The position numbers and the translations under genes are program-made. From the NCBI GenBank assembly GCA_964187785.1, contig OZ076409.1:66590001-66654000 (forward strand): a DNA stretch of 64,000 nt. The letters are read 5' to 3'. This DNA comes from Amphiscolops sp. MND2022 (lineage: Eukaryota). Below the pieces are notes generated by a model. It was not told the origin of the DNA and did not search any database. It was given only the letters and a program-made list of their open reading frames with translations. Within the stretch, counting starts at the first letter, position 1; every line of letters starts with the position of its first letter. Positions 20,945 through 64,000 of the stretch are shown one piece after another.

Positions 20945-21655
20945 TTATTGCAGCGAAATTGACTGACAACCCGAACCAGTACGAAAAGTAGGTGCAAATT
21001 TGAAGCAATTACTATTACAATCGAACCAATAAGAACGGGAAATAGATCTCAAGAAACCTATACTGTCGTAAGCACGAGTATCTGAGGATGTAAATCCGTC
21101 TTTCTGGCGGTCACCAAGTGTCTTACTCTTCAAATGATTTCTAGAGTCTGAATTACGCAGAACTTCAGAATATCCTTCCGGTCTCTCAGACGGAACGTTC
21201 CATCTCTCTTTGGTCATATGTCCGGAATCGGCCATAAGGGCATTTTGAATCTGGGGAAGAACTTGATTACTAATTGCCTCACTTATAGCTCTTTGAATCT
21301 GCACGCTGACACTGTTCATCATCTCATCCATCTCCCGAGATATACGGGAATTTAACTCACTCGACAATCTGTTGATCTCAGCATTAGAACTGCCTCTAAC
21401 TGAGTTCTGACCTAATTCGGCATTTGGACTAGGTCCGTTGTTTTCAGAGTTAAATAACCTATTTTCGTCCTCATTTTCAAATTCATCACCAAAAGGACTA
21501 CCAGGTCTTCTGGCCTGGTTACTATTTAGGCTCTCACTTCTTCCATTTCTATTATAATGATTTCCTCCGAGCATTATGTCCAAATTCTCAATATCTGACA
21601 ACATTTCTGCCTCTCTTGATTTTCTCGCTTTCTTTTGTTTCCTTGTGGTAGGCAT
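20945..21655 (-). CDS. LTR-encoded Gag N-terminus (197 aa) reading out into flanking DNA (39 aa more)
   Basis: Nearly identical to the Gag N-terminus up to RAYD at the LTR edge, then continues in host flank. Expression unknown. Confidence 0.45.
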   Translation of the reverse strand: MPTTRKQKKARKSREAEMLSDIENLDIMLGGNHYNRNGRSESLNSNQARRPGSPFGDEFENEDENRLFNSENNGPSPNAELGQNSVRGSSNAEINRLSSELNSRISREMDEMMNSVSVQIQRAISEAISNQVLPQIQNALMADSGHMTKERWNVPSERPEGYSEVLRNSDSRNHLKSKTLGDRQKDGFTSSDTRAYDSIGFLRSISRSYWFDCNSNCFKFAPTFRTGSGCQSISLQ

Positions 21656-22909
21656 TGAAATTGAACCGGGTTGAATAATTTAATTATTAAAACCGGAAAA
21701 CTGACAAACGTCGTTGTAATAAAACAATCTTTATCAAAGTAAGGTTATGGAAATTGTGTCTCCCTTTGCAGGAAAGTGACTATATATACTCCTGAAAGAT
21801 GACACTTGCATTCCACGGATTCTTTGATCAAGATAATATCATGTGGTTATGTCCTCAACAGGTCATGTGACAAATATCATTACGGCATCGGGTATTAATA
21901 CTTCAAAGCAACTATTTTAGGGTGATGTCCCGATTGGGAAAATTCCTAACATTTTACAATCACAACTATTCATTCATCAAAGGCGGCATCAAAATATTTA
22001 CTAGCGCATCAAATGAAATTTCCGTCTATCAAAGAAACTAGTACTCATCATGAATATAAATAACATTGCATACATTCCTTTCTGGCACGTGCCACCACGT
22101 GACCTAAATTAGCTTTACAGCAGTGTGAAGCACCTCATGTTATTAGGCCCAATACGGCCAATTGACATATTAATAATTATATGCGTTGATTAACCGATTA
22201 GCCCCAAATACATGTACTGCATCACATTCCAAAGGAACGTAACAATTCCAATGGCCGGGAATAGCCGGCTAATTAATGGGCAAGTACTAATGAAATATGG
22301 CCTTAAGGGCCTAGCAAAAGGTTGGGTATTAAAACGAAGCATCGGTCAAGGACAAAGATCTGGCTATTATGAAAACATAAACTCAACAAACATGATTTGT
22401 TACATGTTAAATTATCACCTTATTTCAATCTTGAACTAATGGGACGGAACCGGCCATTTGACCAGTGTACCAAAAGAGAATATTAAAAGCGCGGTAATTG
22501 GCCTTACTCGGCCATTAATTAAATAGCATCAATAAACGAGATTGCATACTGCAATATGATTGGTTGAGGTAACGTGTTCAAGTGACGCTGGCGGTACATT
22601 GCCGTACGTTACTTGAACTCGTTTCCTATACTGCCTTACAGTTGCTCGTTTCATTGTATTTCCTATTGCTTTAAATTAGCGCCTTACAACTCCATCAACT
22701 CGATTGAAATTTCCAATTGTTAGATTTAACAGACTAATTGTATATAAAATGAGCGTCATCAATGATCATAATGCACAAAATAACAAAATGGCGTGAAAGT
22801 TTGATATCAATTGTAAGTTCTTAATAAATAGGTAAGGTTCCGGGTACATATTCTTGGCCAACTGCCGAAGTAGTTACTGTCGTGCCGTCACAGGCGGCAG
22901 CCTGCGACA
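21064..22909 (-). repeat. 3' LTR of element A
   Basis: Matches 35506-37351, with only two substitutions noticed by eye. Confidence 0.95.
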
Positions 22910-23603
22910 CTGCGGGTGTTATGAAAAGAAAGCATCCTGCATTAAGCCCATTCTCGTAGGCTTCTTTCCTCAACTTCGTGATGTGCTCGGGCTCGTTCCT
23001 TGGGGTGGATCGTTCCATATACCATCTGACTCTCTCACTCTTGATTGCATCTACAGAGCGGCCGCAAACCATACACCCAGTATATTGGGTCTCGCTGACG
23101 TTTTGGTAGGGCACCGAGTTCTGCACGTGATAAGACACATGAAAATCACTTACTGCGGGCTGGGTCAGAGGAGTGTCCTGGCTTGGCCCCCTCTCATGGA
23201 TTGGTGGAGACATCGGTGATTCTAGCACTGGCAGCAGCGTCTTGCAGAGCTCAATTCGTGTTTTCTCCGCTCTTTTTGACGGGGCATAGCACCTTTCGTG
23301 ATCAAAGTATTTTGTGTCTAACTTGGGAGTCACATCTTGCCCCGGCTGCCTGGTGCTTGGTCCTGCGACCATTTCTTCCTCCATACTGCTAGTCGTCATG
23401 ACACGTCCGGCAATTAGAATGGGGCTGGACACTACCTGCTTCTCCACCCTTCTGATCATTTCGTCCGTGTCCGTCGACCAGTCTGAGTCCAAATCAACTG
23501 AGGTTTCCTCATCGCTGCTTATGTAAATGACTGAATCGCCTGATGAGTCTGAGTCCAGTTCAGCCATCTCGAAGAGCTTTCCAGATTTTGCGTATTTATC
23601 CAT
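22821..23603 (-). CDS. ORF3 of element A: acidic protein of about 260 aa with a SIM-like motif and CxxC; stop codon lies inside the 3' LTR
   Basis: Open frame from ATG 23603 (track ORF starts at TTG 23651). The C-terminal peptide VSQAAACDGT.VTTSA.GQE.VPGTLPIY* is conserved with synonymous changes at the start of the element B LTR (55072-55160). Confidence 0.75.
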   Translation of the reverse strand: MDKYAKSGKLFEMAELDSDSSGDSVIYISSDEETSVDLDSDWSTDTDEMIRRVEKQVVSSPILIAGRVMTTSSMEEEMVAGPSTRQPGQDVTPKLDTKYFDHERCYAPSKRAEKTRIELCKTLLPVLESPMSPPIHERGPSQDTPLTQPAVSDFHVSYHVQNSVPYQNVSETQYTGCMVCGRSVDAIKSERVRWYMERSTPRNEPEHITKLRKEAYENGLNAGCFLFITPAVSQAAACDGTTVTTSAVGQEYVPGTLPIY

Positions 23604-24561
23604 GATGAATTTTTTAGCTATTTTGAAGTTTATGAAGGCAACTAGCTGCAAGTGAGATTCAAAGTTGAATGAATTTATAAAACTCTCCTCAGGCCGACTC
23701 GGGCCGTTTTCCCGGGGTTTCGTTTCAGCGGCAGAATCTTTGGTTAATCGGTCTGATCCGTCGTAAACTTTCCTGAATGGAGTTTCACAGCGGCGGTCCG
23801 CCCTTTGAATATCGGAACGCTGCCCCCCGAGCCCACCCTCTCAAGTAGGTAATCAGAGAGGTGTTAAGTTAACAACAACAAATAACTCCACTTCAAGAGG
23901 GTAATTAACATCAAGCTTGATATCAATTAACGGCACGCGTCAGATAAAGCCTACTAAAATGGCTTCAGCCAATCAAATTTGAGTTTCGATAAATTTGAAA
24001 AATGAATAATAAAGATGGCGAAAAATAATAATTTGAATAACTAAAATGGCGAAAATGATAAACCAAAATAATTTAGAATGGCGGAAACAACAATTTGAGT
24101 AACTATAATAACGGAAGTCCCAATTAGGATAACGAGCGAAATGGAACAAGATGATAAACTGAAATAGGGTAAACGGCCGTAATCGGCCAATAATTCCATA
24201 AGTTGTAAATAATGAAGTAAACTTTGTACATTTCGCTGGCAGACTCCATGTACTGAATAAATATGTAAATAATTAAATAATATTAGTCTGGTAATTTCTT
24301 CAGCCACGACCTCCAACTTTTATCTCTTTTCAATTGTTAACACGCATTTAGTTCCATTACCATTTAAATTGTTTACATTTGTATCCTTCAGTCTTTACTA
24401 TTCCGCTTTCCTTATCTGGATCTTCAACTTCGTTGTTGGCTTCTTCTTCCCTTTACGGAGCCCTCCGAGCCTTTCTTTCATCAGCCGTGTTAGGCCGTCT
24501 TCCCCATACTCTTCATCCGAATTTGGATAGAATCCCTTAGAACGAATTCTTCCACAACAGA

Positions 24562-27500
24562 ATGTCTTCAAAAGCAGGTTGGTCTGGGTTTTCATATTTT
24601 TGAACTAGTTTAACTTGATCAGAGCTAAGTTTGTTCACTAATTGCTTCCTGTTTCCACTACTTGGTGAACACGTGTTGATCACGTCCGTTCAGAATTTCG
24701 AACACTTCCGGAAGTTTTCTAATGCGGCAAATGGATTTCTATCAAGGAAGCATACCGCCAAATTTCATCTCCTTCTGTTTAGAAAACCAGACAAGTGATG
24801 AGACCCAAGTCCCAGCCAACCCAAGTTTAGACAATCCTGTTGAGACTGAAGTGTCAGCTCCTCATACCTCTGTTCTAACGCAATCCCAAGAGACCAAAGG
24901 GAGCACGGATAGCGAGGTTGACGTGACTACTTTCGCCGATGAGATGGTAGACATGATGGAGAAAGCCCAGACGGCAATTGCTCGCTCCCCAGATGGTACT
25001 GCCACTGTCACTTCTACTGGTGCTGATGACCGAACTCAGGAGAGGACTGAAACATTAGTCCAGGAACTAGTCAGGACAAGTACCCCAACGCTCCCCGATG
25101 AGGAAGTGTTGACCCAGTGTAACTTGTCTGCATTGGAGTCTGCACTCAGAGTAGCCACCTCGTCCAATTCCCAGCTCCCAGAACTTGTGGCCGTTGTAGC
25201 GTCACCTCCCAATGATGAAACTCTAACCAGGGCGCAATCTGGAGATGATAATGAATCCTCAGTGTACGAAGTCCCTGCTCTACCCATTGAGAAGCCCAAA
25301 GTCCACTATCTTACGGATTTCAGTGGGAGTGAGCAAACTGCAGATGAAAATAGCTTAGCAGGATGCCCTCCTTTGTACGGAACCAACCCACTGGAGATTG
25401 AGTCAGGAGCTGAAGCAGGGAGTGAGACCGGCATCAATCCCTCACATTCGATGCTCAGTAACCAAGACGGTGTGCCCCAGAGACGGCAAGATGACAGGCT
25501 TCCTGAATTATCAGGTAGAACTCGCGCCATCCTCAAAACCTACTTTGATGATGCACAGCCATTCTCTTTGCCCCTCGGACATCCAACTGTGGCTTTTACT
25601 GAGCCACAGATGTATCACCTCCTAAGGTCCCTCACTGACGAGACTATCCGAATGTCTTATACCACGATGGAGCGAATGGTGTTGGACGCAGTAAAGGGCA
25701 CCCCGACCGTGGCCCCGTCAAGGACCAGTCACTTCCAGAGCAGAGTTCGAGCCCCCACTCCCTTTGGATGCAGTGAATCAAGTGACGATGAAACTGATAA
25801 TCTCACTGGGGCCTGTCCCATAGCTGGTTCCTCGTCTGGAGCGGAAGGCACTGATACATCCGCTGGGTTCGAAGACAGCGATAGTTCCGGAGAGATGGCT
25901 CTGATCACTGAGACATTCAAGAAGAATCTCACGACGGATCTAGGACCAAATCCCACGCAGCAGTCCGGGAGCCAGTCCCAACAAGAAGAGCCTGGCCAAT
26001 CAGGCTTCAGCAGCCAAGATGCCACGTTGCTGGAAGTCCGCGATGAGGCTCTGGAACGCAAATCCAGAACAACTGCCAAGACGCAGAGGCAGAAACGCAT
26101 CAAGCGCACCACCCACAGAGGAGTCCCCATGCGTGAAGAATTTTTTGCAAAAATTGGTTGGACAAGGTCCTTCATTTCTGGACCCGCGGACCCTATCCAC
26201 AATCCTCTGATGGTTTGGTGTCACATTTGCAAAAGAAACTTTTCCATCCGCAGCAAAGGCACCATGGAAATCCTAAGGCACCACCGTTCAGAGAGGCATC
26301 TAAGAAAGGATCAGAGGTGGCGATATGAGCATCTAAAGAGTGTTGATCCCGTCACCAAGCAAGTCCAGCATCGTGTAAGAGGACGAAACGGAAAGCTTCT
26401 GAATAAGATTGAGTTAGCCAGAGAACTCCCACGTTTCATCCATTCGGAACTAGTGGACATCGGGGAACGATTCCCCTTTTATGACGATTTTATCCAGGGA
26501 CGGACCACTGCCATAGTCACCCCAGAGTCCAGGTCCAGGACCCAATTGGGCATCGTCATTGACTTCCTCAAGGACCACGGCGATTTTGCGATGCTACGCA
26601 ATCTATGGGCACGCCTTAGTTCATTCACAGACTACCAAGCTACTCTCTGTGACTTCGACTGGGGGGAAGAACGTATGACGGTAAGTTTTTATTTTCCCTA
26701 CTTGTAGGTTGACTCAATCTATTCTGCATTTTTGAAACATTCGTCTGTTTTCCAGACAATCTTCCAGCACCTGTTCAATTGCGCTATGAGCGAAATAGCG
26801 GAGTGCGTGGCTGCAGAACAGTGCTTTGCCATAGAATTTGAAGACAGCAATGTCAACCGCTTCATGTCCCTTCGGTTCTGGAAGGGGACTGAATTGTGTC
26901 GCGTCCTCGTCTGTCGCAGCGAGCTACCCTCTTCGGAATTGTCAGGAGAACTAGGGTCTCTCTCACGGCTCCTATCTGCAGTCTCCACCAATTGCGACGT
27001 GGTGGCTTGTTCTGGCTGCCCCGTTGACTTTGTTAGGACAATCGACCATTCCCCACTCTTCTCAAGAGCAGTGCAGGCGTCCTTCCGGTTTGAGACCTTG
27101 TCCCTCTCCAGACTGATGCACAAACCCAGTTATAGCGTCTTCGGGCATATCGACTTCTTTTCGGTCCTTCATGCCTTAGTCATCACCCTGGGTGGATCTC
27201 TCTCTGAGGATTGGGTACTGCAGAGCCCCACCTTATCTCAGGTAATCACTTTCCGATTATGGTAGGAATGTTGTACCTTGGACAGATAAGAGGCCCTGGT
27301 TATTTCCTTTACGGACACTAATACAATACGTTATTTAGGCCATAACTTCATGCAAATTGGATCTTCCCACTCTTCCTGTCCTATGTCAGGAACTCATCAT
27401 CGCCTGGAAGTCCGTTGTGCGCTACCTAACGGAACACTCACCCCGACAACAAGGACAGGGGGTTCGAACGAGAGTAAGTCCACTAAGAGATTGGTTTTCC

Positions 27501-28898
27501 TTCCCCTTAGGTCCCAACGTTAAATTTCGGTACCTTTCAAAATGTCCTCATAATTCAGGCTAACTGATATTTTCCCATTACAGGCACAGAGCTTTGAGTG
27601 GACCCTCATCTGTGATGAGTTCTTCACCATCAAATTGGAATTCTTTTGCAAGCTCGTCAGTGACTGTTAGTATCACTACTTAGCCTCCTCTAGGACGTGT
27701 CTTTAACTCATATATAAGGTCCGCCTTTGTTGTAGATACTTCCAGTTTTGCGGTCAACCTGCAACAGCGACGAGATGGGTCCTTCTTCCTGTGTGGTGAG
27801 GTCTCTCGTTATATACATCAACTCTGTTTCCGGATCTACACCGCTGATACAGTCCCATTGGAAAATGCATGGTTCCAGCTCCTCAATTTCCGTACTTCAG
27901 ACGGAGTTTTCATCCCCGAGGCGGAGTTTCTGGCTCGTCTCAAGATCACCAACAAGGTCGCAACAGCCAGTAAGCAGAGGTCAGAAGGGGTCCATTCTGG
28001 TCAAAAGACTGAGCGTTCCGTAATCCAGAAGACAGCGGAGGCAATCAAGTCGAAGTTTGTCCAAGACGGGCAAAACTACCTGAAGTACTTATTGGGAGAG
28101 GTCCTCCATGAACCCGGTCTTAGCTCTAACATCATCAAAGGTCTGGCTGCTTTTGATCCAACTGTCATGCTCAAGAGGCCAATCGACATTGCTCTTAAGC
28201 ACTTTGAGTTGTTATACAGCACTTTCCTCCTCCGCTCTTGGGTCCTCGAGGCCGATGAGTCAGCTTGTCGGGATGATTATTTGGCTCTTCTCGATCATCT
28301 CCGAGGGAATTACCCCCCTACCTATGACGTCACCAGTGCCTCTCGAGACTTGATTGAATTCATGATGACCTTGGACTTCCTTCAGTCACGGGAGCGGCTT
28401 GTTTATTTGTTTAAGCTTTGCTGTCTGTGTGCAACCTCTGTTACCCCTACTTATCCAGTAGTAACTGCCGGGAGTGTGAGTACGGCGGGTCACCGAGGCA
28501 GATTTACCGATGTTATTCTGCCTGTCCAGAGTTATATAAGCTCAGTTCCTGGATCAGCCGCTTTCTGTTGTAATGAAGCTAATCTGTCCAAATTTTCTTT
28601 ATTCGCTTCCTCCTTTGGACGATCTGCCTTCTCAGCCGATTACGACCCTTGGGCGTACGTTGACGATTTTGGCCGCTCCAAAATTTACAAATCGCTGCTG
28701 TCCACCTACAAATCCATTCTCTCAGTGCCTAAGGCAGTTTCCACTGAGGCAGGAACCAGGGGCGACGATAGTGTCGCCGATGAATGTGCTCTGAAAGCCC
28801 CCAGCGCTAGCAAGCGCAGGAGGATGAGTCGGAGCGCTTCTCGATCTAGGACCTCTTCTGTCGTGGATGAGTGTGTCCCTAGTTCTTCTAAAAACTAA
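24562..28898 (+). CDS. Antisense spliced cargo gene of element A: BED-finger, hAT-transposase-like protein of about 1228 aa. Predicted exons 24562-24577, 24783-26680, 26756-27241, 27339-27473, 27584-27655, 27736-27795, 27879-28898
   Basis: Six GT-AG introns (205, 75, 97, 110, 80, 83 nt) whose phases join the track ORFs 24722, 26732, 27357, 27748 and 27858 into one frame. WCHIC-x16-H-x5-H zinc finger at 26216-26299. A homolog sits at the same position in element B. Exon 1 and the last two junctions are less certain. Confidence 0.75.
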
Positions 28899-29171
28899 AT
28901 GTACATATGTAATTATGTACAACCAGTTGTAAACTTTGTTGATTTCTTTCCGTTTCTGTTATATTTTTATTTCTTGTCGTTGTGTTTATTTGTATTCCAT
29001 TTGTTGCCAATTTCTTGATCCCATATTATTCCCTTGAAGGGATCATTGTCAAACGTCCCGATATTTATTCAAAAAATACCACTTTCTGGGACTGAAAAGA
29101 AAAGAAATAATGATAAAAGGAAGAGAAAAGATAGTTCGGCGTCCGTTTTCGGGCACAATTTAATCTTTCCT

Positions 29172-32100
29172 TTAGTATCTAAAGTCTTCTGAGTAGTTAG
29201 GGGTAGGATTAGGTCTGAGATTATATTTCCCAGCTCTAGGACTCAGATTTTCATTTCCTTCTTCATTTTGCGGTATTTCGGGCACGATAATATCATCCCC
29301 CCTATTTGGAGAATTTTCTGCATCTTTTTCATTCATCAAATTTCTTTCTGGAAAGTTTGCATCGTCTTTTAGTCCTTCAGCCGTATTCGGCACAGATTTT
29401 TCTTGGGTTTTTGGGGAAACGGCCGGATTTGGCCAATCAAATTCGTCATTTCTAATAGCTTCAGTAGCTTTATTTCTTTTAGTGACGTCATCAATTAATC
29501 GTTCATTCCGGCTATGCGACGCGCGGTCAGTGAAATTTGATTCGTCACTCGTGATTACATAATCAACTTCATTCTCGCTTGCGTCATTTGCGTTCGGTTC
29601 TGCCGTAGTTGGCTGTTCGTCATTTGTCAAGCTGGTCGGAATAGTCTCTCTGCCTCGTGTGTCTAGTTGTTCGCCAAAGTTTGTTTCCCACGTTATTACA
29701 TACAAGTCGTCTTGCGGAATGATTATTTCATCATCCGGCTGTAGACGCTGTTCTCGGAAATTGTCCTCAAGTGGTTGATTTGGCACAAACTTTTTGAGAC
29801 GAATTCGATGCAATATCTGCGTTTTATTTGTATTAAGCCTGCGGACAATGTAATTCTCATTAGGTAAGGTCTTCTGGACTATAAACGGTCCAACCCAACG
29901 ATAATCCCTGAATGGAATTTTTGATCCTTGATGATCCGCTTTCGGCTGTAATACAAAACAGTAATCGCCCTCTTTGAGTGGGGCGGCTTTTGCTTTTCGG
30001 TCGTAATACTCCTTATATTTGATATATGACTGCATGATGTTCTGCTTTGTTTTGTCAATAAGGAGTTTGGTCCGGTTCTGGATTTCTTCGGCAAATTCAG
30101 TAGTCGGATGGATTGGCTCATTTGGATTCATTCCAAGTTTGTGATCCAATATGTTGTATGGGATTCTCCCATGGAACACTCTTGTGGGTTCGCATCCGAT
30201 ACTGGCATGATAACTAGTGTTATGATTGAGAACTGCTAAAGGCAAATATTTATGCCATTGTCGGCGATATTCCCCACATGCCATTTTCAGGTTCGTTTTC
30301 AATGAGGCATGCGTTCGCTCTAATTTCCCGATAGTTTGCGGGTGTTTCGTCGTTGCACATTTTAGGGTAATGCCTAAAATCTGTGTAATTTCCGCAATGA
30401 TCGTGGAGGTAAAGGCAGTTCCTTTGTCCGTAATGAGCGTCGTCGGTAGGTAAGAATGTTTGGTCATAATATCAATGATTGCTTTAGCTACATTGATCGC
30501 TGATGCGTCCGTAAGAGGATAAGCAAACAAGTATCGAGAGAAGACATCAATTGCAGTTAAAACATTTTCGTATCCTCCACTTGGGGGAAGATTCGGCAAT
30601 AAGTCGATTTGCATGGCGTCTTCGGGTCCAAGGTCCCATTCCGGCAAGTTAAGTAGTTCAGGCGTGATTGTTGCGTTTGGGACTCGTTTGTCCTTTGCAC
30701 ATTGTTCACACCCTTCTACCCACTTTTTGACATGTTTTGCCATGTTAGGGTAATAATACTTTTGTCTGATTTCCTGCAACATTTTTGAAATCCCGGGATG
30801 TTTATGCGCTGTCCCATGAAGGGAGTGGAGCACTTCCCGGAGTAGGTGTTGCGGGAGCAAAATTTGATGGTATTTAACATTCCCTGTTTCATCAAAATAT
30901 TGCCTTGTCAGGATTTCGTCTTTGAGTACGATTCGCTCCAGATTATTTGCATAGTGTCTATATCGAGCATCTTGTTGCAGTATGTTTTCTGAATAATCTT
31001 CATGAAGGAGTTTCGCCTTCAATTGTTGTAATACTGTATCTTTGGATTGCTCAATGATGATCTGGTTCATTTTCCTCAATCGGACTTGTACATCGGGGTG
31101 TTGCTTGACCAGATTTGTTGATAAAGTTTGTATAGTAACGGTGGGCTCATCAATTGCTGGGTTTTTCCTGATTGCTTCTTTCCTTGCCCAAGCCTGTTCC
31201 TCTGTCTCATCGTCGTCATTGGTGTAGAAGATTTGTTCTTCTTGCGACACCCCTGCGGATTGGACATTGATTTCAATTGGTAAAGTTTGTACGTCCTCAC
31301 GGATTTTCATGACTAATTTATCCTTCGGGTCTGCCTCCAATCGGGACAAATAGTCAGCTGCTGTATTCTGTGCCCCCGGGATGTGTGCTATGACAAAATT
31401 GAACTGAATCACATAATCACATGCATTCCACAGGGCTGGGGGTATTATTTTCGTTTGGAAAAATCTCGTGACCGCTTTGTTGTCCGTAAGGATGATGACC
31501 GGTTTCGGCGCACCCCAGAATATATGTCCGAATTCTTTGAATGCAAAGTAAATTGCAAGGAATTCTTTTGCATAAATTGACATCTTTATCTGGGCTGGGG
31601 TGAAAATTTTTGATCCGTATGCGACTGGTGCATACGATTTCCTGAGTGACGTGAATTTCTGGTTCGGGTCATCTTCGATTAAGACCGCGTATCCGGCTGC
31701 ACCAAAACTTGCGTCAGTCATTAGTGCTATTTGTTTGTTCGGAATGGGTTGTTGTAATGCCAAGTCGCAACATTTGTCAAGTGCTTTGTTGATTTCCTCG
31801 AATTGTTGGACCAATTCTTTCGATACCAGGACCTTTTCGTCACTCTTTAGCATCTTGTAGAATGGTGCAAGGCGTTCTGAAAGTCTTGGGACATAGTTTC
31901 TGTAGTAATTCAAGAATCCCAAGTAGCGCTGCAAAGCCTTTTTCGACTTTGGGAACTTGGTCTTTTCCAGAAAGTTTTGCACGTTTTGTTTCTGGGGTTT
32001 GACGCCTTGCGGGGTAATAGTCCGTCCGAGAAAATCAATTTCTTTGGCACCAAAGTGACATTTATGCATTGTCAATTTAAGGCCTGCTTCCTGAATGCAT

Positions 32101-34379
32101 TTGAATGTAGCCCTCAGGTTAGCTATGAGGTGGTCAGCATCATTTGCTGCGATGCCTATATCGTCCACGTACTGGGCACACTGATCCGCTTTGATGACTT
32201 TGTCCAGGTATTCTCTCATAAAACTCGAGAATGCGGATAGTGACCGGCTAAGGCCTTGTGCCAGACGTCTGTAGGCGAATGTGCGACTGGCAAAATTGAA
32301 AGCCAACATTTCAATTGAACGTTGGTCGGCCATTGGTAGACAATGGTATGCCTGCGAACAGTCTAATTTACAGAAGAGTTTTTTGCCTGCCAAGTGTTGG
32401 GCAGCATCAACCAAGGTGCTTACAGGGTGATTATTGTTTATATAATCATCCGAGATGAGGTTGTTGATTTTCCTCAGGTCAACCAAAAGTCGTAGCTTTC
32501 CATTTGGTTTCTTTTGGGCGAATATTGGGCTGGCATACTTGGAGAACGGTAAAGTGGTGATGATGCCATATTTGTGTAACATGGCTAATTCAACTAGGAT
32601 GTCCTCCTTCAAATTGATAGGAGCTGGAAGACTTTGACTATAGGCTGGGGAATCGTCCTTAGGTGTCAGTTTCACCTTGAAGTCCTCTTTCATGCCTATA
32701 TCGAATCGGTGTCGTGCAAAGATGTCGTGAAATTCCACTAACAATTCCTCTATTTTCTCCTTCTCTTCAGGAGTAAGGGTGGAATCTTTCCAGTCAAAGT
32801 TTTCTAAGAATTTTGCACGTGATTCTTCGTCTTTTGTGGGGTCAAGAGTCTCTAGGTCTTGTAGGGCTTGTAATTCTTGAAGGATTCGTTTTTGTATGGG
32901 TGTGTGTTCCTCAGGATTTCCAGGGTTTTCTGGAGTTGGGAACCAGTAATTTTCAGTGTTTTGTGGGTTTCTGTTTGTCTTGATCAGGCTACTGACGTAA
33001 TGGGCTGCTTGTTCTTGGTCGGTTTGTAACAAATGCCAGGTTGATGCCGGGTCTACCGGTTTGACGTATTTCATTTGCTCTGGCGTCATGACAGAGAAAT
33101 TGGCAATATGTAATCCCTTTTTGAGTTTATAGGGGTGGTCTGTGAAATTATTCACAGGTATCGATATGTTGCCATCATTCAGAGTGACCAAGGCTGGGCA
33201 AAAGGTGATGTCGCCTTCTTCATGTAGAAGGTCGCTCGGTTGTAAAATCCCAGTGACAGCATTTTCAGGATACAGTAGGGAATTGGTCCTAATTAGGACT
33301 CTGTCGTTTGGCGGAATGGTTATTTCAGTGGGGTTGAGAATTGGTTCTAGTACATTTGAATATTTATGATCAGCTGTTTTGAGCTGCATTGAAAAGAATG
33401 GGAAGTTTAGTATTCCTTGTCTCATGTCCAGGACTGTATGATTTCGTTGAAGGAACATTAGTCCAATGATCGGACCTGTCAGGTGTTCCATGACTATGAA
33501 AATCTCGTGAAACTCGATGTCACCAACTTCAAATTTGAGCTCTATGGTACTCTTGGGAGTTTCCAATTGCCCATTAGCGACCATTATTTGGAAATTCGGA
33601 GGCGGGCCCTCCCGGATAACAGATTGTGGAGATAAAAGTCGGATTTTCCGGAGGTCCATTTCAGGATTTGCACTGGACAGCGCTCCAGTGTCGATGAGTC
33701 CATCTATGGTCAATTCTCCAAAGTCCATTGGGAAATACAACATGCGTTTCTTGCATTTGAGATTGATGTTGGTTGACAAAGGTATACAGTCTGGTTCGCC
33801 GTCCCTTGTGATTAGGACATTTTGGAATTGTTTCTCGTCTAGTAGTGATTGTTGTATGGGCTCAGTATTGTTGTCATGGTTCTCGGTCCCCAATGGGTTT
33901 GGGAATACCGGGTGGCGTGTACCATCATTCATCTGCCATGTTTCAATCAATGCTCTGGTTTTCTTGTTATGGGTGATTGGTGGATTGTCATGGACTGATC
34001 TGTTATAGAGTTCTATATCATCAATAACGTATTGGAATTGCAACAAATCCTGGTTATAAAGTTCGGTGTCCCAATAGGGATCTCGTCCATAGTCAGGATC
34101 TATGTAGGTAGGATTGTAGTCATCTACCAAGGGAATGGGCCTGAATCGGCTATTGAAAACAGATGTGTAATCAGGGTCCCATACAGGAATTGGTTTTTGG
34201 AACAAATGGGTATTATTATAGGTAATAATGGTAGCTTTTTCCATCTGTTGCTGCCAGACAACAGAAGGGTAGCCCATCAGTTGCTGCTGATAGTTATGAA
34301 AGCTCTGAGTTGGAGGGTCCGATTTGATGTATTGTCGGACAGAGACTAATTGGTTATATTGGAGTCGTGGCGAAGTTAG
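29172..34379 (-). CDS. pol: Pol polyprotein of element A (protease, dUTPase-like region, RT, RNase H, integrase with GPF motif)
   Basis: LIDTGA, YVDD, MTDAS, HHCC finger, QIDL/TDKG/LERTH and WVGPF motifs. The frame is open upstream of ATG 34277 back to the slippery site. Confidence 0.95.
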   Translation of the reverse strand, partial: LTSPRLQYNQLVSVRQYIKSDPPTQSFHNYQQQLMGYPSVVWQQQMEKATIITYNNTHLFQKPIPVWDPDYTSVFNSRFRPIPLVDDYNPTYIDPDYGRDPYWDTELYNQDLLQFQYVIDDIELYNRSVHDNPPITHNKKTRALIETWQMNDGTRHPVFPNPLGTENHDNNTEPIQQSLLDEKQFQNVLITRDGEPDCIPLSTNINLKCKKRMLYFPMDFGELTIDGLIDTGALSSANPEMDLRKIRLLSPQSVIREGPPPNFQIMVANGQLETPKSTIELKFEVGDIEFHEIFIVMEHLTGPIIGLMFLQRNHTVLDMRQGILNFPFFSMQLKTADHKYSNVLEPILNPTEITIPPNDRVLIRTNSLLYPENAVTGILQPSDLLHEEGDITFCPALVTLNDGNISIPVNNFTDHPYKLKKGLHIANFSVMTPEQMKYVKPVDPASTWHLLQTDQEQAAHYVSSLIKTNRNPQNTENYWFPTPENPGNPEEHTPIQKRILQELQALQDLETLDPTKDEESRAKFLENFDWKDSTLTPEEKEKIEELLVEFHDIFARHRFDIGMKEDFKVKLTPKDDSPAYSQSLPAPINLKEDILVELAMLHKYGIITTLPFSKYASPIFAQKKPNGKLRLLVDLRKINNLISDDYINNNHPVSTLVDAAQHLAGKKLFCKLDCSQAYHCLPMADQRSIEMLAFNFASRTFAYRRLAQGLSRSLSAFSSFMREYLDKVIKADQCAQYVDDIGIAANDADHLIANLRATFKCIQEAGLKLTMHKCHFGAKEIDFLGRTITPQGVKPQKQNVQNFLEKTKFPKSKKALQRYLGFLNYYRNYVPRLSERLAPFYKMLKSDEKVLVSKELVQQFEEINKALDKCCDLALQQPIPNKQIALMTDASFGAAGYAVLIEDDPNQKFTSLRKSYAPVAYGSKIFTPAQIKMSIYAKEFLAIYFAFKEFGHIFWGAPKPVIILTDNKAVTRFFQTKIIPPALWNACDYVIQFNFVIAHIPGAQNTAADYLSRLEADPKDKLVMKIREDVQTLPIEINVQSAGVSQEEQIFYTNDDDETEEQAWARKEAIRKNPAIDEPTVTIQTLSTNLVKQHPDVQVRLRKMNQIIIEQSKDTVLQQLKAKLLHEDYSENILQQDARYRHYANNLERIVLKDEILTRQYFDETGNVKYHQILLPQHLLREVLHSLHGTAHKHPGISKMLQEIRQKYYYPNMAKHVKKWVEGCEQCAKDKRVPNATITPELLNLPEWDLGPEDAMQIDLLPNLPPSGGYENVLTAIDVFSRYLFAYPLTDASAINVAKAIIDIMTKHSYLPTTLITDKGTAFTSTIIAEITQILGITLKCATTKHPQTIGKLERTHASLKTNLKMACGEYRRQWHKYLPLAVLNHNTSYHASIGCEPTRVFHGRIPYNILDHKLGMNPNEPIHPTTEFAEEIQNRTKLLIDKTKQNIMQSYIKYKEYYDRKAKAAPLKEGDYCFVLQPKADHQGSKIPFRDYRWVGPFIVQKTLPNENYIVRRLNTNKTQILHRIRLKKFVPNQPLEDNFREQRLQPDDEIIIPQDDLYVITWETNFGEQLDTRGRETIPTSLTNDEQPTTAEPNANDASENEVDYVITSDESNFTDRASHSRNERLIDDVTKRNKATEAIRNDEFDWPNPAVSPKTQEKSVPNTAEGLKDDANFPERNLMNEKDAENSPNRGDDIIVPEIPQNEEGNENLSPRAGKYNLRPNPTPNYSEDFRY

Positions 34380-36097
34380 TTTTTTGACTCATCATTAGAG
34401 GATGAGGATTGGGAGCTCGATAATGTCGGTTTGGTCTGAGGTTTCTGAGCCTTTGGATTGGGTTTACCGTTATTGGCGTCATCTGGTCTGGTGCGTTTGG
34501 GTTTGAGATGTGCACCAGCACCTTGCCAACATCTTTCTTCCGGGTGGTTCTTTTTACCACAAGTGCCACACTCCGGGTACGTCTTTTTCTGAGTCTGTTT
34601 GCCTTGTTGGGCATCTTTTTCTTTTTTCTTCTTCAATTTCTCGCAATCTTTGACCATGTGGCCCTTTTCTTTGCAATAATTGCACGTTATATCACTCATC
34701 TGTACGTTGGAAGGAACAGTTTTTGTCTTGCCAATCGAAGATGTCATTGATGCTATGGGCAGGTCGTCAGACTCTTCAAGTGCATTCAGTTCCAGTTCTC
34801 GCTCTAGATGAGCGACAATTTCATCGTAAGAGCCATTCTCTAGTCTAGCCATGTTGACTGATCTTTTGAGCTTTGGTGGCAGTTTTGCATATAGGAGACT
34901 GTCAATCATTTTTTGGGCATTGTCTCCGAAGGCTTTTTCTGCTCCTTGGTTAAGCTCTTCAAGAAAGTCTGGCAATTTGGTCGTGTTAGGGTCAAAGACT
35001 AGGCGATGCCATTTGTGTTTTGCCGTTGCCTGAGATTCAGGTTTGACGTACTTTCGTCTGAAAATGACAAGTACATCTTCAAGAGTTTGTCTATTGGCGT
35101 TGCTGATGTTTCTGAATGTTTGGAGTGCATTCTTTCGCAGCAAGGAATGGAAGTGATTGATTTTCATTTGTTCGGTCATCTCAGGCTGCATCTTGATCAT
35201 CGTATGGAATAAATCCTCAAACAGCTCGAACTTCTCACTTTTTCCGTCGAATGTCATTGTGTTGGAGTTGACTGGGCGGATAGTGAGTTGTTGGGCCGTT
35301 GGACGGTTCTGCATACTAGTCAAAACATCTGCTAGCCTGTTGATGGGGTCTTGTTCTGATGCCAGAGCGGGTCGTTCTTGTGCTGGGATCGTCGTGTCGA
35401 GCAGCGGAAGGTCATCACAGGATCTGTTGAGATGAGTAGTGGATGGCATTCGTCCTGTGAGAAACTCAGGAACTTCAATTGGAGATTCGTTTTCTCCTGT
35501 CACCATGTCGTAAGCACGAGTATCTGAGGATGTAAATCCGTCTTTCTGGCGGTCACCAAGTGTCTTACTCTTCAAATTATTTCTAGAGTCTGAATTACGC
35601 AGAACTTCAGAATATCCTTCCGGTCTCTCAGACGGAACGTTCCATCTCTCTTTGGTCATATGTCCGGAATCGGCCATAAGGGCATTTTGAATCTGGGGAA
35701 GAACTTGATTACTAATTGCCTCACTTATAGCTCTTTGAATCTGCACGCTGACACTGTTCATCATCTCATCCATCTCCCGAGATATACGGGAATTTAACTC
35801 ACTCGACAATCTGTTGATCTCAGCATTAGAACTGCCTCTAACTGAGTTCTGACCTAATTCGGCATTTGGACTAGGTCCGTTGTTTTCAGAGTTAAATAAC
35901 CTATTTTCGTCCTCATTTTCAAATTCATCACCAAAAGGACTACCAGGTCTTCTGGCCTGGTTACTATTTAGGCTCTCACTTCTTCCATTTCTATTATAAT
36001 GATTTCCTCCGAGCATTATGTCCAAATTCTCAATATCTGACAACATTTCTGCCTCTCTTGATTTTCTCGCTTTCTTTTGTTTCCTTGTGGTAGGCAT
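34376..36097 (-). CDS. gag: Gag of element A (573 aa, two CCHC knuckles); first 197 codons lie in the 5' LTR
   Basis: CNYCKEKGHMVKDC and CGTCGKKNHPEERC knuckles, plus a capsid-like FDGKSEKFELFEDLF region. Confidence 0.93.
   Translation of the reverse strand: MPTTRKQKKARKSREAEMLSDIENLDIMLGGNHYNRNGRSESLNSNQARRPGSPFGDEFENEDENRLFNSENNGPSPNAELGQNSVRGSSNAEINRLSSELNSRISREMDEMMNSVSVQIQRAISEAISNQVLPQIQNALMADSGHMTKERWNVPSERPEGYSEVLRNSDSRNNLKSKTLGDRQKDGFTSSDTRAYDMVTGENESPIEVPEFLTGRMPSTTHLNRSCDDLPLLDTTIPAQERPALASEQDPINRLADVLTSMQNRPTAQQLTIRPVNSNTMTFDGKSEKFELFEDLFHTMIKMQPEMTEQMKINHFHSLLRKNALQTFRNISNANRQTLEDVLVIFRRKYVKPESQATAKHKWHRLVFDPNTTKLPDFLEELNQGAEKAFGDNAQKMIDSLLYAKLPPKLKRSVNMARLENGSYDEIVAHLERELELNALEESDDLPIASMTSSIGKTKTVPSNVQMSDITCNYCKEKGHMVKDCEKLKKKKEKDAQQGKQTQKKTYPECGTCGKKNHPEERCWQGAGAHLKPKRTRPDDANNGKPNPKAQKPQTKPTLSSSQSSSSNDESKN
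34379..34385 (-). promoter_or_regulatory. -1 ribosomal frameshift slippery heptamer A AAA AAC
   Basis: Sits immediately before the gag TAA. The -1 frame (LTSPRLQYN...QQLMGYP) is the pol frame. The same arrangement occurs at 58047-58053. Confidence 0.85.
35494..35505 (-). promoter_or_regulatory. Primer-binding site TGGTGACAGGAG abutting the 5' LTR
   Basis: TGG directly follows the LTR-terminal CA. The same 12-mer is at 56930-56941 in element B. Cognate tRNA not determined. Confidence 0.75.
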
Positions 36098-37351
36098 TGA
36101 AATTGAACCGGGTTGAATAATTTAATTATTAAAACCGGAAAACTGACAAACGTCGTTGTAATAAAACAATCTTTATCAAAGTAAGGTTATGGAAATTGTG
36201 TCTCCCTTTGCAGGAAAGTGACTATATATACTCCTGAAAGATGACACTTGCATTCCACGGATTCTTTGATCAAGATAATATCATGTGGTTATGTCCTCAA
36301 CAGGTCATGTGACAAATATCATTACGGCATCGGGTATTAATACTTCAAAGCAACTATTTTAGGGTGATGTCCCGATTGGGAAAATTCCTAACATTTTACA
36401 ATCACAACTATTCATTCATCAAAGGCGGCATCAAAATATTTACTAGCGCATCAAATGAAATTTCCGTCTATCAAAGAAACTAGTACTCATCATGAATATA
36501 AATAACATTGCATACATTCCTTTCTGGCACGTGCCACCACGTGACCTAAATTAGCTTTACAGCAGTGTGAAGCACCTCATGTTATTAGGCCCAATACGGC
36601 CAATTGACATATTAATAATTATATGCGTTGATTAACCGATTAGCCCCAAATACATGTACTGCATCACATTCCAAAGGAACGTAACAATTCCAATGGCCGG
36701 GAATAGCCGGCTAATTAATGGGCAAGTACTAATGAAATATGGCCTTAAGGGCCTAGCAAAAGGTTGGGTATTAAAACGAAGCATCGGTCAAGGAAAAAGA
36801 TCTGGCTATTATGAAAACATAAACTCAACAAACATGATTTGTTACATGTTAAATTATCACCTTATTTCAATCTTGAACTAATGGGACGGAACCGGCCATT
36901 TGACCAGTGTACCAAAAGAGAATATTAAAAGCGCGGTAATTGGCCTTACTCGGCCATTAATTAAATAGCATCAATAAACGAGATTGCATACTGCAATATG
37001 ATTGGTTGAGGTAACGTGTTCAAGTGACGCTGGCGGTACATTGCCGTACGTTACTTGAACTCGTTTCCTATACTGCCTTACAGTTGCTCGTTTCATTGTA
37101 TTTCCTATTGCTTTAAATTAGCGCCTTACAACTCCATCAACTCGATTGAAATTTCCAATTGTTAGATTTAACAGACTAATTGTATATAAAATGAGCGTCA
37201 TCAATGATCATAATGCACAAAATAACAAAATGGCGTGAAAGTTTGATATCAATTGTAAGTTCTTAATAAATAGGTAAGGTTCCGGGTACATATTCTTGGC
37301 CAACTGCCGAAGTAGTTACTGTCGTGCCGTCACAGGCGGCAGCCTGCGACA
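35506..37351 (-). repeat. 5' LTR of element A
   Basis: 1846-bp repeat with a TATA-like TATATATA at about 36223-36230 upstream of the gag ATG, conserved in element B at about 56211. Confidence 0.95.
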
Positions 37352-55071: not shown

Positions 55072-56929
55072 TGTCGCAGGCTGCCGCCTGTGACGGTACG
55101 AGTGTGACAACGTCGGCAACTGGACAAGAATTCGTACCCGGAACATTACCCATTTATTAATTGGGATAATTTACAAACTTAGAACTTTCATACTGTTTTG
55201 TTATTCAATATGTAATATGTTTGTTGATGTTGTTAGCTTCGATATATATGTACTTGCACATGTAAAATTAGTCTGTTAAAAGTCACATTTGAAGATTCAA
55301 ATAGTGTATTTGTAACTTCAAAAGATTGAAAGGCGCTTTGCTATTGTAAACGTAATACGTGACAATGTAGCTGTACAGTAGAAAGGAAACGAGTTCAAGT
55401 GAACGAAACTCCTATTCCGGAGACGTCACTTGAGCTCAACTCCTTAGCCAATCACGTTGCTCCTTTTCTATAAGTAATACCACTTTGATTATGTAATGGC
55501 CGAGTATGGCCAATTGACTCAATAATTGTGCCTTTTAGTCAAACGGCCGGTTCCGGCCACTTCGTTGGAATAGCCTGTATGTGTGTTAATTGGGTGTACT
55601 AATCGTAAATTACTGTAAATGTACTCTTAATAATGAATGAAAGCCCCAATGCCGCGCAATGAGCTTAATAAACCTAGTACTCACTCAAAAGCCGAATAAG
55701 GCTTTCTCCCTCTTTTATTACAGTGCTGAATTAATAAACCGGATTTGTCCATCTTCGGCATTGTCAGAAAGTGTGTTATTTTAATAATGCTGTATTATTT
55801 TAAGCAGAACTGATCATGTAATATTTAATCTAGTTCCTACTCACGTTGAATAATAGGCGCGTGGTAACGCGTGTCACAAGCACATTCCGAAGAGATGCCT
55901 TTTGCATTCCTTCAATAGACATTGGTATTTGTTGACAGGATGATGTTGATGATGTTTATAAACACGACACTTGAAGGTGCTGCTTGTGTACCCTGTTAAA
56001 TATCATTCTTTTGATGTTGAATTCCTAAGGACTACCCTGAAACTAGGAATTTTCCCAATCGGGACATCACCCTAAAATATCTGCTTTGAAGTGTTGAACA
56101 CCCTACCCGATGCTGTAATAACACTTGTCACATGACCCGTTGAGGCCATAGTCATATGATGTTTTCTTGATCAAAGAATTTGTGGAATGTGAGTGTCATC
56201 TTTTTAGGAGTATATATAGCTATATTTCTGTAAAAAAGGACACAAATCCCATACCTTTACTTTGATAAAGATTGAATTAATACAACGACTTTTGTCAGTT
56301 TTCCGGTTTTGATAATTGAATTATTCAACCCGGTTCTGTCTTAATGCCTACCACTAGAAAGCAAAAGAAAGCGAGAAAGTCTAGAGGACTTGAGATGTTA
56401 TCAGATATTGAAAATCTGGATATCATGTTAGGAGAAAACCATTTTGGTGCACGAGAAAGAGAAGGTAGCCTGAATAGCAATTTACCTAGGAGGTCTAGGA
56501 GTTTTGCTAGTAATGAGTCTGGCAATGGGGACGGGAACGGAAGTAGACCCAGGGGAAATATTGAACCTAGGATGAGTGCCGAGTGTGATCGCAATTCTAT
56601 CACAGGTCATTCTAGCGCTGAAATAAACAGATTGTCTAGCGAACTGAAATCTCGTATTTCACGGGAAATGGATGAGATGATGAATTCCGTAAGTGTCCAA
56701 ATACAGAGAGCCATACACGGCGCGATAAGTACTCAAGTACTTCCTCAAATCCAAAATGTTATAATGGCCGAACCAGGACACAGGATCAGAAAGGGATGGG
56801 ACGTTCCGGCCGAGAGACCGGAACCAAATTCCGAAGTTCAGCGAGACCTTAACGCAAAGAGTAGCTTAAGAAACGAACAATATGTGAATCAATTGAACGG
56901 TGATTACCCTGACCTAAATGTTCATGACA
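55072..56929 (+). repeat. 5' LTR of element B (1858 bp, inferred by homology)
   Basis: TGTCG start and TGACA end followed by the PBS. The partner LTR is outside the window. Predicted TSD is CTAAT (55067-55071). Confidence 0.8.
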
Positions 56930-58056
56930 TGGTGACAGGAGACAACGAATCTCCAAATCCAGTTCCTGAGTTTCTCACAGGACGCATCTCATCCCGAAAT
57001 CATCTCGACAGGTCCTTTGAGGACATCAACCTCGACACGACGATCCCAGCACAAGAGAGAATCGCTACGGCTGCTGACTCCGACCCCATCACCCGACTGG
57101 CAGACGTCTTGACTACAATGCAAAATAGACCGACAGCCCAACAACTCACCATACGCCCAGTCAACTCAAATACCATGACATTCGATGGCAAAAGTGAGAA
57201 ATTCGAGCTGTTCGAAGACCTATTTCACACTATGATCAAGATGCAGCCAGAAATGACTGAGCAAATGAAGATCAATCACTTCCACTCTTTATTGAGGAAG
57301 AATGCTCTTCAGACGTTCAGAAATATCAGCTCAAGCAACCGATAAACTCTAGAGGACGTACTAGTCATCTTTAGACGGAAATACGTCAAACCCGAGTCAC
57401 AGGCGACTGCCAAACATAAATGGCACCGCCTAGTCTTCGATCCCAATACGATGAAGCTGCCTGATTTTCTCGAAGAATTAAACCAGGGAGCCGAGAAGGC
57501 GTTTGGTGATCATGCACAGAAAATGATTGACAGCTTGCTCTATGCAAAATTGCCACCTAAGTTGAAGCGGTCTGTCAACATGGCCAGACTAGAAAATGGC
57601 TCATATGATGAAATTGTTGCTCATTTGGAGAGAGAGTTGGAACTCAACGCCCTTGAGGAATCAGATGACCTACCAAAGGCCACAATGACCTCCTCGACTA
57701 CAAAATCTAAAACTCCTCTGTCCACTGGGCAAATGTCAGACATTACTTGCAATTATTGCAAGGAAAAAGGCCACTTGGTCAAAGACTGCGAAAAACTGAA
57801 AAAGAAAAAAGAGAAAGATGCCCAACAAGGCAAGTCAACGCAGGAGAAAACATACCCGGAGTGTGGCACTTGTGGCAAAAAGAACCACCCGGAAGAACGA
57901 TGTTGGCAAGGTGCTGGTGCACATCTTAAACCCAAACGCACTAGACCTGAGGACTCAACTGAGATTAAGCCCAATCCAAATGCTCAGAAACCTCAGACCA
58001 AACCGACATCATCGGGCTGCCAATCCTCATATCCTAATGATGAGTCAAAAAACTAA
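56344..58056 (+). pseudogene. gag: Gag of element B with a premature stop
   Basis: TAA at 57343-57345 where element A has CAA (Gln). The same frame continues to 58056. Confidence 0.85.
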
Positions 58057-63260: not shown

Positions 63261-63503
63261 AAAAGATTGAATTTTGGCCAGGAGACAAGCCTTGGACCTA
63301 TTCCTTTTCTTCTATCATTTCATTTCTTTTATTTTTTCAGTCCCATGCAACATGGTATTTTTTGAATAAATAATGGGACAACCGAAGAACCCCTTTCAGG
63401 TAAATAAATACAGAGGCATTGCAACAAATGGAGATACAAAAGACAACAAAACAGAAAAATAACAAAGTTTACAGTTCATAAGTACATAAATACATATGTA
63501 CAA

Positions 63504-64000
63504 TTAGTCCTTAGAACAACCGGCAGGAGATTCTCTGACGACGGACGAGGCTCTCGAGCGGGATCTGCTCCTCTCCATGCGCTTCCGTTTGCGGTCACCG
63601 GGCGGGACTACTGCAGGCATATCTCCAACGCTGGAAGACGTTGTCTCATCGAGGCCCACTTCACCTAATCCAGAAAGGGCGGAACGATATGACGTAAGAA
63701 GGGACTTGTAAATTCTATTCCTACCAAACTCGTCAACGGAAGTCCAGGGGTCGTATGAGGCAGATGAGACAGTTTGACTGAAGGAGGCAGAAAGCAGAGA
63801 AAACTTAGCCAAACTAGAGTCACTGATACAGAAGGCAGTGGAGTCCGGAACCCCTGACAGATAACTCTGGACGGGTAAAACCACGTCTGTGAGTCTGTTC
63901 TGATGTTTTGTAGTGTTGGCAGTTCCAATACGTACTGTTGGGTATTGAGGACTTTCAGACGTAATGCATAAACAACTCAACTTGAATAGATATAACAGAC
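63504..64000 (-). CDS. 3' end of the antisense cargo gene of element B
   Basis: Aligns to the C-terminus of ORF 27858-28898 (LFKL.CLC, TDV.LPVQSY, YDPW..VD.FGR..IYKSLL). Open to the window edge. Confidence 0.85.
   Translation of the reverse strand, partial: LLYLFKLSCLCITSESPQYPTVRIGTANTTKHQNRLTDVVLPVQSYLSGVPDSTAFCISDSSLAKFSLLSASFSQTVSSASYDPWTSVDEFGRNRIYKSLLTSYRSALSGLGEVGLDETTSSSVGDMPAVVPPGDRKRKRMERSRSRSRASSVVRESPAGCSKD

Follow-up and report, generated by a model that had tools for sequence, protein, structure and literature searches.

The DNA analysed here (the window) is a stretch of 64,000 nt from Amphiscolops sp. MND2022 (assembly GCA_964187785.1, contig OZ076409.1, positions 66,590,001 to 66,654,000 of the forward strand). 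It contains a Ty3/gypsy long terminal repeat (LTR) retrotransposon, element A, that carries a real, selected, and modular two-gene cassette, which belongs to a very abundant, recently active clade of animal gypsy elements. In element A the region from pol to the 3' LTR is 6,262 bp long and holds two genes head to head, ORF3 in the sense of gag-pol and a multi-exon gene antisense to it, with a 1.13 kb spacer between them (Table 1), as the original prediction of two divergent genes in about 6 kb had proposed. LTR elements with accessory open reading frames (ORFs) are already known, and it is the layout of element A that appears to be new. The prediction did not recognise this architecture and no description of it was found in the literature; Repbase, Dfam, GyDB, or the supplements of genome papers might hold one.

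By analogy with the Tas and Bet proteins of foamy viruses, the cassette may encode a transcription regulator of the element together with a partner that acts in the SUMO pathway. This is the reading that is tentatively favoured here, at a little less than an even chance.

Structure of the antisense gene

The antisense gene, on the plus strand of the window, consists of five exons that keep one reading frame over introns of 75, 97, 110, and 70 nt (phases 0, 0, 0, and 1). In all of the 16 cases examined, from element A, the diverged relative element B, and two other lineages (L040 and L041), there is an intron with GT-AG ends at the matching place. When aligned to B-type copies the exons diverge at third positions, and the introns cannot be aligned except at their ends. 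In intronless relatives reading continues through the first junction, with an equal residue count in two of them when checked by eye. Comparison thus points to splicing of this gene, as had been predicted. The introns are retained in 25 of 25 near copies, which would be expected if the antisense introns escape splicing in the genomic RNA and so survive reverse transcription.

The predicted protein has 1,274 aa if read from 24722 and 1,271 aa if read from the methionine at 24731. The latter is probably the start codon, because this methionine is conserved and the in-frame methionine upstream is not.

Copies, selection, and reassortment of the cassette

All copy counts given here are lower bounds and are biased toward the best matches. 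In the host genome of 1.07 Gb, the 6.3 kb cargo region has full-length matches at at least 23 places, at 96–100% (25 of 4,113 candidates scored), and 15 of these copies are open in ORF3 and in exons 1, 2, and 5. For exon 5 there are at least 104 matches (103 of 7,800 candidates scored), being 32 at 97–100%, one fragment, and 71 at 56–62%, of which 61 have no internal stop. ORF3 has at least 147 matches (of 8,194 candidates), 136 of them without a stop. Both genes are present in the same layout beside pol in the diverged lineages B, L040, and L041, although in L040 the frame is broken in exon 1 and in ORF3; both genes of element B are found in its continuation beyond the window (L027/L039). The proposal that both genes are inherited components of the family is borne out by this co-occurrence and by the selection on the genes.

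Against four near copies, the ratio of nonsynonymous to synonymous divergence (dN/dS) is 0.14–0.19 for ORF3, 0.14–0.17 for exon 1, 0–0.04 for exon 2, and 0.13–0.22 for exon 5. Among 22 copies it is 0.03–0.22 for shared variants and 0.10–0.41 for private ones, rather than the value near 1 of decaying cargo. Between lineages the synonymous sites are saturated (proportion of synonymous differences, pS, 0.77–0.98) with dN at 0.14–0.50. Both cargo genes are under purifying selection. This largely refutes the idea of a passenger cassette, in which a nested DNA transposon or a captured gene would ride along and do nothing for the element, even though nested composites of a transposase within an LTR element are known, such as Coe1 (PMC2426827), and in 8 of the 23 full-length copies a single cargo frame is broken once, by a stop, a frameshift, or an interruption. 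Since dN/dS is far under 1 both within and between lineages, and the splice sites have been retained while the intron sequence diverged, a passenger is extremely improbable.

Elements A and B are far closer in pol, where dS is 0.69 and the reverse transcriptase DNA is 91% identical, than in the cargo, where exon 5 DNA is 61% and ORF3 DNA 69% identical, so that the histories of cargo and pol differ. In one locus (L024) an A-type antisense gene is joined to an L041-type ORF3. The 76 copies of A-type ORF3 comprise 30 that neighbour an A-type exon 5, 6 that neighbour an exon 5 at 57%, 33 that neighbour an exon 1 of another frame-length class, and 7 with no partner listed. This pairing was made by coordinates only and used 103 of 104 rows for exon 5, 88 of 147 for ORF3, and 43 for exon 1 that were picked by hand. 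From these sequence comparisons, the cargo genes reassort via the mosaic spacer. The two genes are therefore not a lock-and-key pair, and a strict pairing of ORF3 with the antisense protein was rejected.

Relatives in the public collection number 202 for exon 5, 282 for exon 1, and 221 for ORF3, with 120 of them listed for each cargo part as European Nucleotide Archive (ENA) records. Exon 2 gives 319 clusters at 50% identity, and among the aligned homologues there are 21 exon 1, 36 ORF3, and 38 exon 5 clusters. The distant members P0495 and P0398 have best matches of 36% and 44% to the host genome, which makes it probable that the family reaches into other genomes. Neither the JGI metagenomes nor IMG/VR, where records near the host genome were possibly excluded, yielded a confirmed relative.

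Two further arrangements were seen among the copies. Cargo matches lie approximately 14.5 kb and 17 kb apart at G000:C12:14.84–14.88 Mb and C7:42.57–42.60 Mb, which suggests tandem or adjacent elements, and one B-type copy (L031:6–385) has an internal deletion that fuses mid-exon 1 to the end of exon 2.

The large antisense protein and its probable hAT origin

Residues 1–250 of the antisense protein carry a net charge of -31 and are modelled with low confidence, with conserved islands; residues 258–347 form a conserved helical domain and residues 446–470 are basic (+10). The model of exon 1 has a low mean confidence (pLDDT, the predicted local distance difference test, 49.7), and fold searches with that model were empty. 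The most conserved part is the zinc finger region, with a mean pairwise identity across lineages of 86%, against 35% for the acidic arm. The four finger ligands are kept in 102/105, 105/106, 104/106, and 103/106 homologues. The spacing of the finger resembles that of the BED type. The C2H2 finger received no BED score from Pfam.

Evidence for the predicted hAT-like character comes from exon 5, for which the model is confident across residues ~11–233. In the Atlas search 22 of the 30 matches are Dimer_Tnp_hAT clusters, with a score of 0.92, sharing only 141 of 256 features. The Hermes hAT transposase tops 48,161 chains (model residues 1–240 on Hermes 367–573, 148 residues aligned, root mean square deviation (rmsd) 4.0) with a Z of 5.6, which is within 1 of unrelated helical bundles. 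The bundles tied with Hermes align 59–96 residues, bar one that aligns 139 at an rmsd of 17. The landmark spacings of the protein, 182/57/387, are on the hAT scale, being 146–153/67–68/347 in two hAT transposases of the host. A check of fold and profile, as had been proposed, thus ranked Hermes first by fold; Foldseek against PDB and viral libraries gave no match for exon 5 and the profile comparison described below was likewise empty. Taken together, individually weak but concordant lines of evidence, without a profile match, point to a BED/hAT transposase as the probable source of the large protein.

The protein is very unlikely to act as a cutting enzyme, because the D-D-E triad is not conserved at the inferred catalytic places. 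At these there is E in 37/56, S in 42/65, and a variable third (E in 11 and D in 10 of 114), with no conserved Asp or Glu at the second and third; the places were set by spacing, motif shape, and the end of the Hermes alignment, rather than from an exon 2 structure. This alignment stops beside residue 572 of Hermes, the catalytic glutamate.

The host also encodes long open frames for Ac-type hAT transposases with the catalytic motifs in place (L042 and L043), which in sequence comparison show no detectable closeness to the cargo protein.

ORF3 and its predicted SUMO-interacting motif

ORF3 had been predicted to encode a SUMO-binding protein. A SUMO-interacting motif (SIM) is defined as a four-residue hydrophobic core with acidic and serine flanks (PMC12751080), and the ORF3 motif fits this definition. 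Its core columns are 91–98% conserved (87 rows) and the full pattern is present in 70 of 89 aligned homologues. The conserved motif has therefore stood, with SUMO binding itself a prediction. A search for the SUMO gene of the host did not find it, the best matches being polyubiquitin-like (228 bp spacing). Seven Cys/His residues of ORF3 are at least 92% conserved, which suggests a metal site. The best Atlas match of ORF3, at 0.81, is a C17orf113-type zinc-finger cluster, which is at chance level and serves as a lead only.

Neither gene is env, in agreement with the original prediction. The highest hydropathy over 19 residues is 1.34 in ORF3, 0.73 in exon 1, 1.63 in exon 2, and 1.31 in exon 5, so that no membrane helix stands out in any of them, and the N-termini are polar by inspection, no signal-peptide predictor having been applied. 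An env or errantivirus-like identity of ORF3 was rejected on this basis.

The spacer and motifs shared with the LTRs

Three blocks stand out as conserved in an otherwise poorly alignable U3 and recur in the spacer, namely a dyad of the form GGCC-N5-7-GGCC, the ATTAGTCTG block, and one with CCAAT. The window contains 13 sequences of this dyad form, where 0.55 would be expected, and 12 of them are within element A or B, including 3 that are LTR duplicates; the patterns were defined after viewing the sequences, and the counts against shuffles therefore overstate the motifs. The exact dyad pattern is present in 28 of 43 loci; spacers of the A2 subgroup have an altered form of it. The 31 bp repeat of the spacer, with its AAAATGGCG-type core, is expanded only in element A and L041 among six aligned spacers. 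No lineage-specific motif rose clearly above shuffles in a k-mer enrichment scan. The shared motifs resemble sites of host factors (CCAAT, YY1, and ETS).

The spacer had been described as rich in family-specific repeated motifs, and the logic of the cassette had been likened to that of the VANC proteins of plant VANDAL transposons. The conserved motifs are indeed there; tandem arrays specific to a family are not, since the motifs number 1–3 copies, are sparse, and are common to the lineages. An arms race of the VANC kind, in which lineage-specific proteins would read lineage-specific repeated motifs and strip repressive marks, would suit the many coexisting lineages, the varying copy number of the 31 bp repeat, and the swapping of modules. 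With the finger so similar across lineages, the motifs shared and unarrayed, and finger genes swapping freely next to the same ORF3, it is nevertheless very unlikely, and the likeness proposed earlier is not upheld. CpG is also little depleted, with an observed/expected ratio of 0.95–0.97 in flanking DNA and 0.74–0.91 within the elements. As the ratio is hardly lowered in the flanks, CpG methylation is probably a minor pressure here.

The carrier element

Element A is a very young Ty3/gypsy element. Self-comparison of the window gives a direct repeat of 1,846 bp, at the two places listed in Table 1 as the LTRs, with 2 differences over its 1,846 bases, termini TG...CA, and a target-site duplication of 5 bp. 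Ty3-G Gag-Pol is the top solved relative of pol (E 9.9e-48), in a search of solved structures only in which BEL/Pao is possibly unrepresented. A primer-binding site follows the 5' LTR in element B as well. Rfam gave no match within element A. Membership in Troyka, which has CG...CG termini and a 3 bp target duplication (PMC12440569), was rejected on the termini and the duplication of element A.

Table 1. Positions of features in the window (strand: +, forward; -, reverse;., none assigned).
Feature	Position	Strand	Remarks
Element A	21064..37351	-	young full-length Ty3/gypsy LTR retrotransposon; 16,288 bp
Target-site duplication	21059..21063	.	TATAC, 5 bp; second copy 37352-37356
3' LTR	21064..22909	-	starts within the ORF3 coding sequence
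ORF3	22821..23603	-	260 aa, sense to gag-pol; final ~29 codons inside 3' LTR; conserved Cys/His set
SIM-type motif of ORF3	23493..23531	-	hydrophobic core and Ser/acidic run
Spacer	23604..24730	.	putative bidirectional internal promoter; conserved blocks; mosaic between lineages
31 bp repeat	23974..24172	+	loose, 3-5 units, AAAATGGCG-type core
GGCC-N6-GGCC dyad in spacer	24175..24189	-	also in both LTRs (22500-22514, 36942-36956) and the LTR of element B
ATTAGTCTG block in spacer	24282..24294	+	also in both LTRs (22726-22738, 37168-37180, minus) and the LTR of element B
Antisense gene, exon 1	24731..26680	+	acidic disordered arm, conserved helical domain, basic stretch, C2H2 finger, helical region
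Zinc finger of exon 1	26219..26299	+	C-x2-C-x17-H-x4-H
Antisense gene, exon 2	26756..27241	+	162 aa; a catalytically dead RNase H-like core putatively starts here
Antisense gene, exon 3	27339..27473	+	45 aa
Antisense gene, exon 4	27584..27665	+	27 aa and 1 nt
Antisense gene, exon 5	27736..28898	+	helical domain like that at the C terminus of hAT transposases; tail basic and disordered
Gap between convergent stops	28899..29171	.	flanked by the stops of pol and of the antisense gene
pol	29172..34388	-	1,738-codon open frame; protease, reverse transcriptase, RNase H, and integrase (PR-RT-RH-IN); overlaps end of gag in a different frame
gag	34376..36097	-	573 aa, CCHC knuckle; open frame
Primer-binding site	35488..35505	-	3' end approximate; starts TGG; adjoins 5' LTR, within gag frame
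5' LTR	35506..37351	-	1,846 bp; houses the first ~197 gag-frame codons
Element B	55072..64000	+	diverged relative, cut off by the end of the window

A purine-rich polypurine tract (PPT) beside the 3' LTR is a general feature of LTR elements (PMC7264820). None was found before the 3' LTR in any of 28 loci, including 22910–22940 of the window, and this is an atypical trait of a family that otherwise passes the criteria for Ty3/gypsy. In the 28 loci the 3' LTR starts in ORF3 behind a pyrimidine-rich stretch with an invariant CCCGCAG end, and the first ~24 bases of U3 are able to form a 10 bp hairpin. These traits would suit a helper of replication or integration, as would selection on the entire transposase body and not on the finger alone: the dead transposase might tether the integration complex, bind the ends of the cDNA or target chromatin, or aid a non-standard priming of the plus strand, with ORF3 aiding nuclear entry or the regulation of integrase via SUMO. 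In folding, the hairpin region does not surpass its shuffles (z -1.4), the integrase domains are intact, and the acidic arm and the motifs common to two promoter-like regions suit transcription better, so that a helper seems unlikely.

On the element strand an AATAAA lies at ~29064–29069 (minus), approximately 100 nt after the pol stop, and is kept in 4 of 4 lineages. It may terminate a short gag-pol mRNA, which would allow the cargo to act as a switch of RNA processing by controlling read-through of this poly(A) signal and hence the balance of short gag-pol mRNA and full-length genomic RNA. Pfam detected no RNA-binding domain and A-rich hexamers are common, which makes such a switch highly unlikely.

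The gag frame begins 1,254 nt inside the LTR, its part ahead of the primer-binding site lying at 35506–36097, and this is conserved in element B and L026. The copy of the gag start in the 3' LTR (21064–21655) is an open frame that extends into flanking DNA.

A possible element-encoded regulator

If the cassette encodes a regulator of the element, an ancestor of this gypsy clade would have captured a hAT DNA-transposase gene in antisense and retained it for self-regulation. A bidirectional promoter within the spacer would drive both the antisense gene and ORF3. The product of ~1,270 aa, with the DDE triad lost, the zinc finger and transposase scaffold kept, and an acidic disordered arm, would bind the motifs common to the LTR U3 and the spacer, and would activate copies, or keep them open, in trans and across the clade. 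ORF3 would engage host SUMO via its SIM and so blunt or redirect SUMO-dependent silencing. Precedents are the regulator TnpA, which arose from a transposase (bioRxiv 10.64898/2026.08.24.746577), foamy virus Tas, which acts on both the LTR and an internal promoter (PMC8670036), and SUMO-SIM interaction, which recruits SetDB1 in piRNA silencing (bioRxiv 10.1101/533091).

Several points weigh against this regulator. SIMs are short and are used in many ways. Host proteins alone could read the shared motifs. No cargo part has a meaningful Pfam family, and ORF3 in particular has neither a Pfam family nor a match among solved structures. Sequence searches of PDB with four cargo alignments gave nothing under E 0.6, and cargo profiles compared by hhalign with the two host hAT transposases scored no higher than reversed or unrelated decoys. 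To these are added the limits already given for the Hermes and Atlas matches, the catalytic places, and the motif counts.

The same anatomy suits an activator or a repressor alike. It could also serve a self-limiting control of copy number, in which the antisense protein would act on the LTR and, with ORF3, recruit SUMO-dependent repressors, while convergent antisense RNA might feed small-RNA silencing. That the finger is conserved across lineages suits a clade-wide control of this kind, and silencing factors do use SIMs (bioRxiv 10.1101/533091). The acidic arm speaks against it, as does the selection seen on copies that are still multiplying, which is more easily explained by a function that helps the carrier, and self-limitation is thus distinctly unlikely.

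The regulator would be one part of a larger picture, an animal clade of complex LTR elements in which a domesticated transposase serves as a spliced transcription factor, alongside an antagonist of the SUMO pathway, in a swappable bidirectional cassette and with PPT-free priming of the plus strand. As a whole this picture is doubtful.

Two questions are open in this field, by what means retrotransposons of animals evade silencing and what purpose the additional ORFs of LTR elements serve; for the antisense ORFs of plants, both origin and function are described as unknown (PMC7264820, PMC11963269). The element A family offers a traceable origin, probably a dead hAT transposase, together with gene models, candidate motifs, a candidate SUMO pathway, and natural recombinants, which makes the question directly testable. 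A hAT origin would show gene flow from class II to class I elements followed by long purifying selection, and would extend the route from transposase to transcription factor from host genomes to other mobile elements. If the proposed regulator is true, activation and anti-silencing would be encoded by a metazoan retrotransposon itself, which could explain runaway expansion of LTR elements.

Element B and other features of the window

The gag frame of element B has an in-frame stop at 57343–57345 and its pol frame is open. Of its cargo, the window contains the last ~165 codons of exon 5 (63504–64000, minus) and, in the 5' LTR, the last ~29 codons of ORF3. Remnants of a decayed and unrelated gypsy-like element, with knuckle, protease, and integrase-like pieces, lie at ~39946–43100 on the plus strand, with no cargo profile match nearby. 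A reverse-transcriptase fragment at 3–1603 (plus) is probably from a LINE, and a single open frame at 13777–14892 (minus) encodes a Ser/Thr protein kinase (Pfam Pkinase, E 6.8e-75).

There is also a dispersed repeat of ~700 bp with a 120 bp internal unit, present in both orientations at 1965–2641, 13033–13730, 39588–39879, and 51668–51872. Inverted repeats at 41065–41518 (155 bp, 97%) and 11950–12233 (57 bp, 100%) are possibly small DNA-transposon derivatives.

Comparison with known systems

Similar in layout are the Retand/Tat plant gypsy elements (Retand, Grande, and RIRE2), which are Ty3/gypsy, have 3–6.5 kb from pol to the 3' LTR, and carry conserved antisense ORFs that are predicted to be DNA-binding and have a proposed regulatory role (PMC11963269, PMC7264820). 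Element A shares the long region with a conserved antisense ORF. The Retand/Tat elements differ in that they are described from flowering plants only, with a TRP28 domain and ORFs of unknown origin, and the word 'intron' is absent from the text available for PMC11963269; element A, in contrast, has an animal host, a five-exon gene probably of hAT origin, and a divergent sense gene with a SIM. Pfam scans of the cargo gave no TRP28 (PF04195) match, and membership in Retand/Tat was rejected.

Foamy viruses have two accessory genes near the 3' end, tas and bet, for a DNA-binding activator of the LTR and internal promoter and for a protein of counter-defence (PMC8670036). The conserved motifs shared by the spacer and the LTR of element A make the spacer a candidate internal promoter. 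If the favoured reading is right, the cassette would resemble Tas/Bet or TnpA most in its mode of action. Foamy viruses differ in being enveloped retroviruses in which both genes are sense and the function is proven, while that of the element A cassette is a prediction. Tas is not known to have a transposase origin.

TnpA of En/Spm and VANC of VANDAL are also regulators of their own families encoded by the elements themselves, but they sit in plant DNA transposons, whereas element A is a retrotransposon in which the finger and motifs are conserved. VANC, which is similar to MAIN-like proteins (PMC13547354), changes fast and co-evolves with its targets, subfamily-specific motifs that are piled up in dense tandem arrays (PMC5735166). 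Membership in VANDAL was rejected, the carrier being an LTR retrotransposon and not a Mutator-like DNA transposon. Coe1 of sugar beet is similar in having a spliced DNA-transposase gene between LTRs, but it is described as a single, apparently nested composite of CACTA and copia type with a reverse-transcriptase pseudogene, and not as a selected multicopy family (PMC2426827).

Host-domesticated hAT proteins share the hAT-derived body, and FAM200/GTF2IRD2-like clusters are among the neighbours of exon 5 in the Atlas (0.91–0.92). The ZBED family also belongs to the host-domesticated hAT proteins. All of these are host genes, whereas the antisense gene of element A would have been domesticated by a multicopy retrotransposon.

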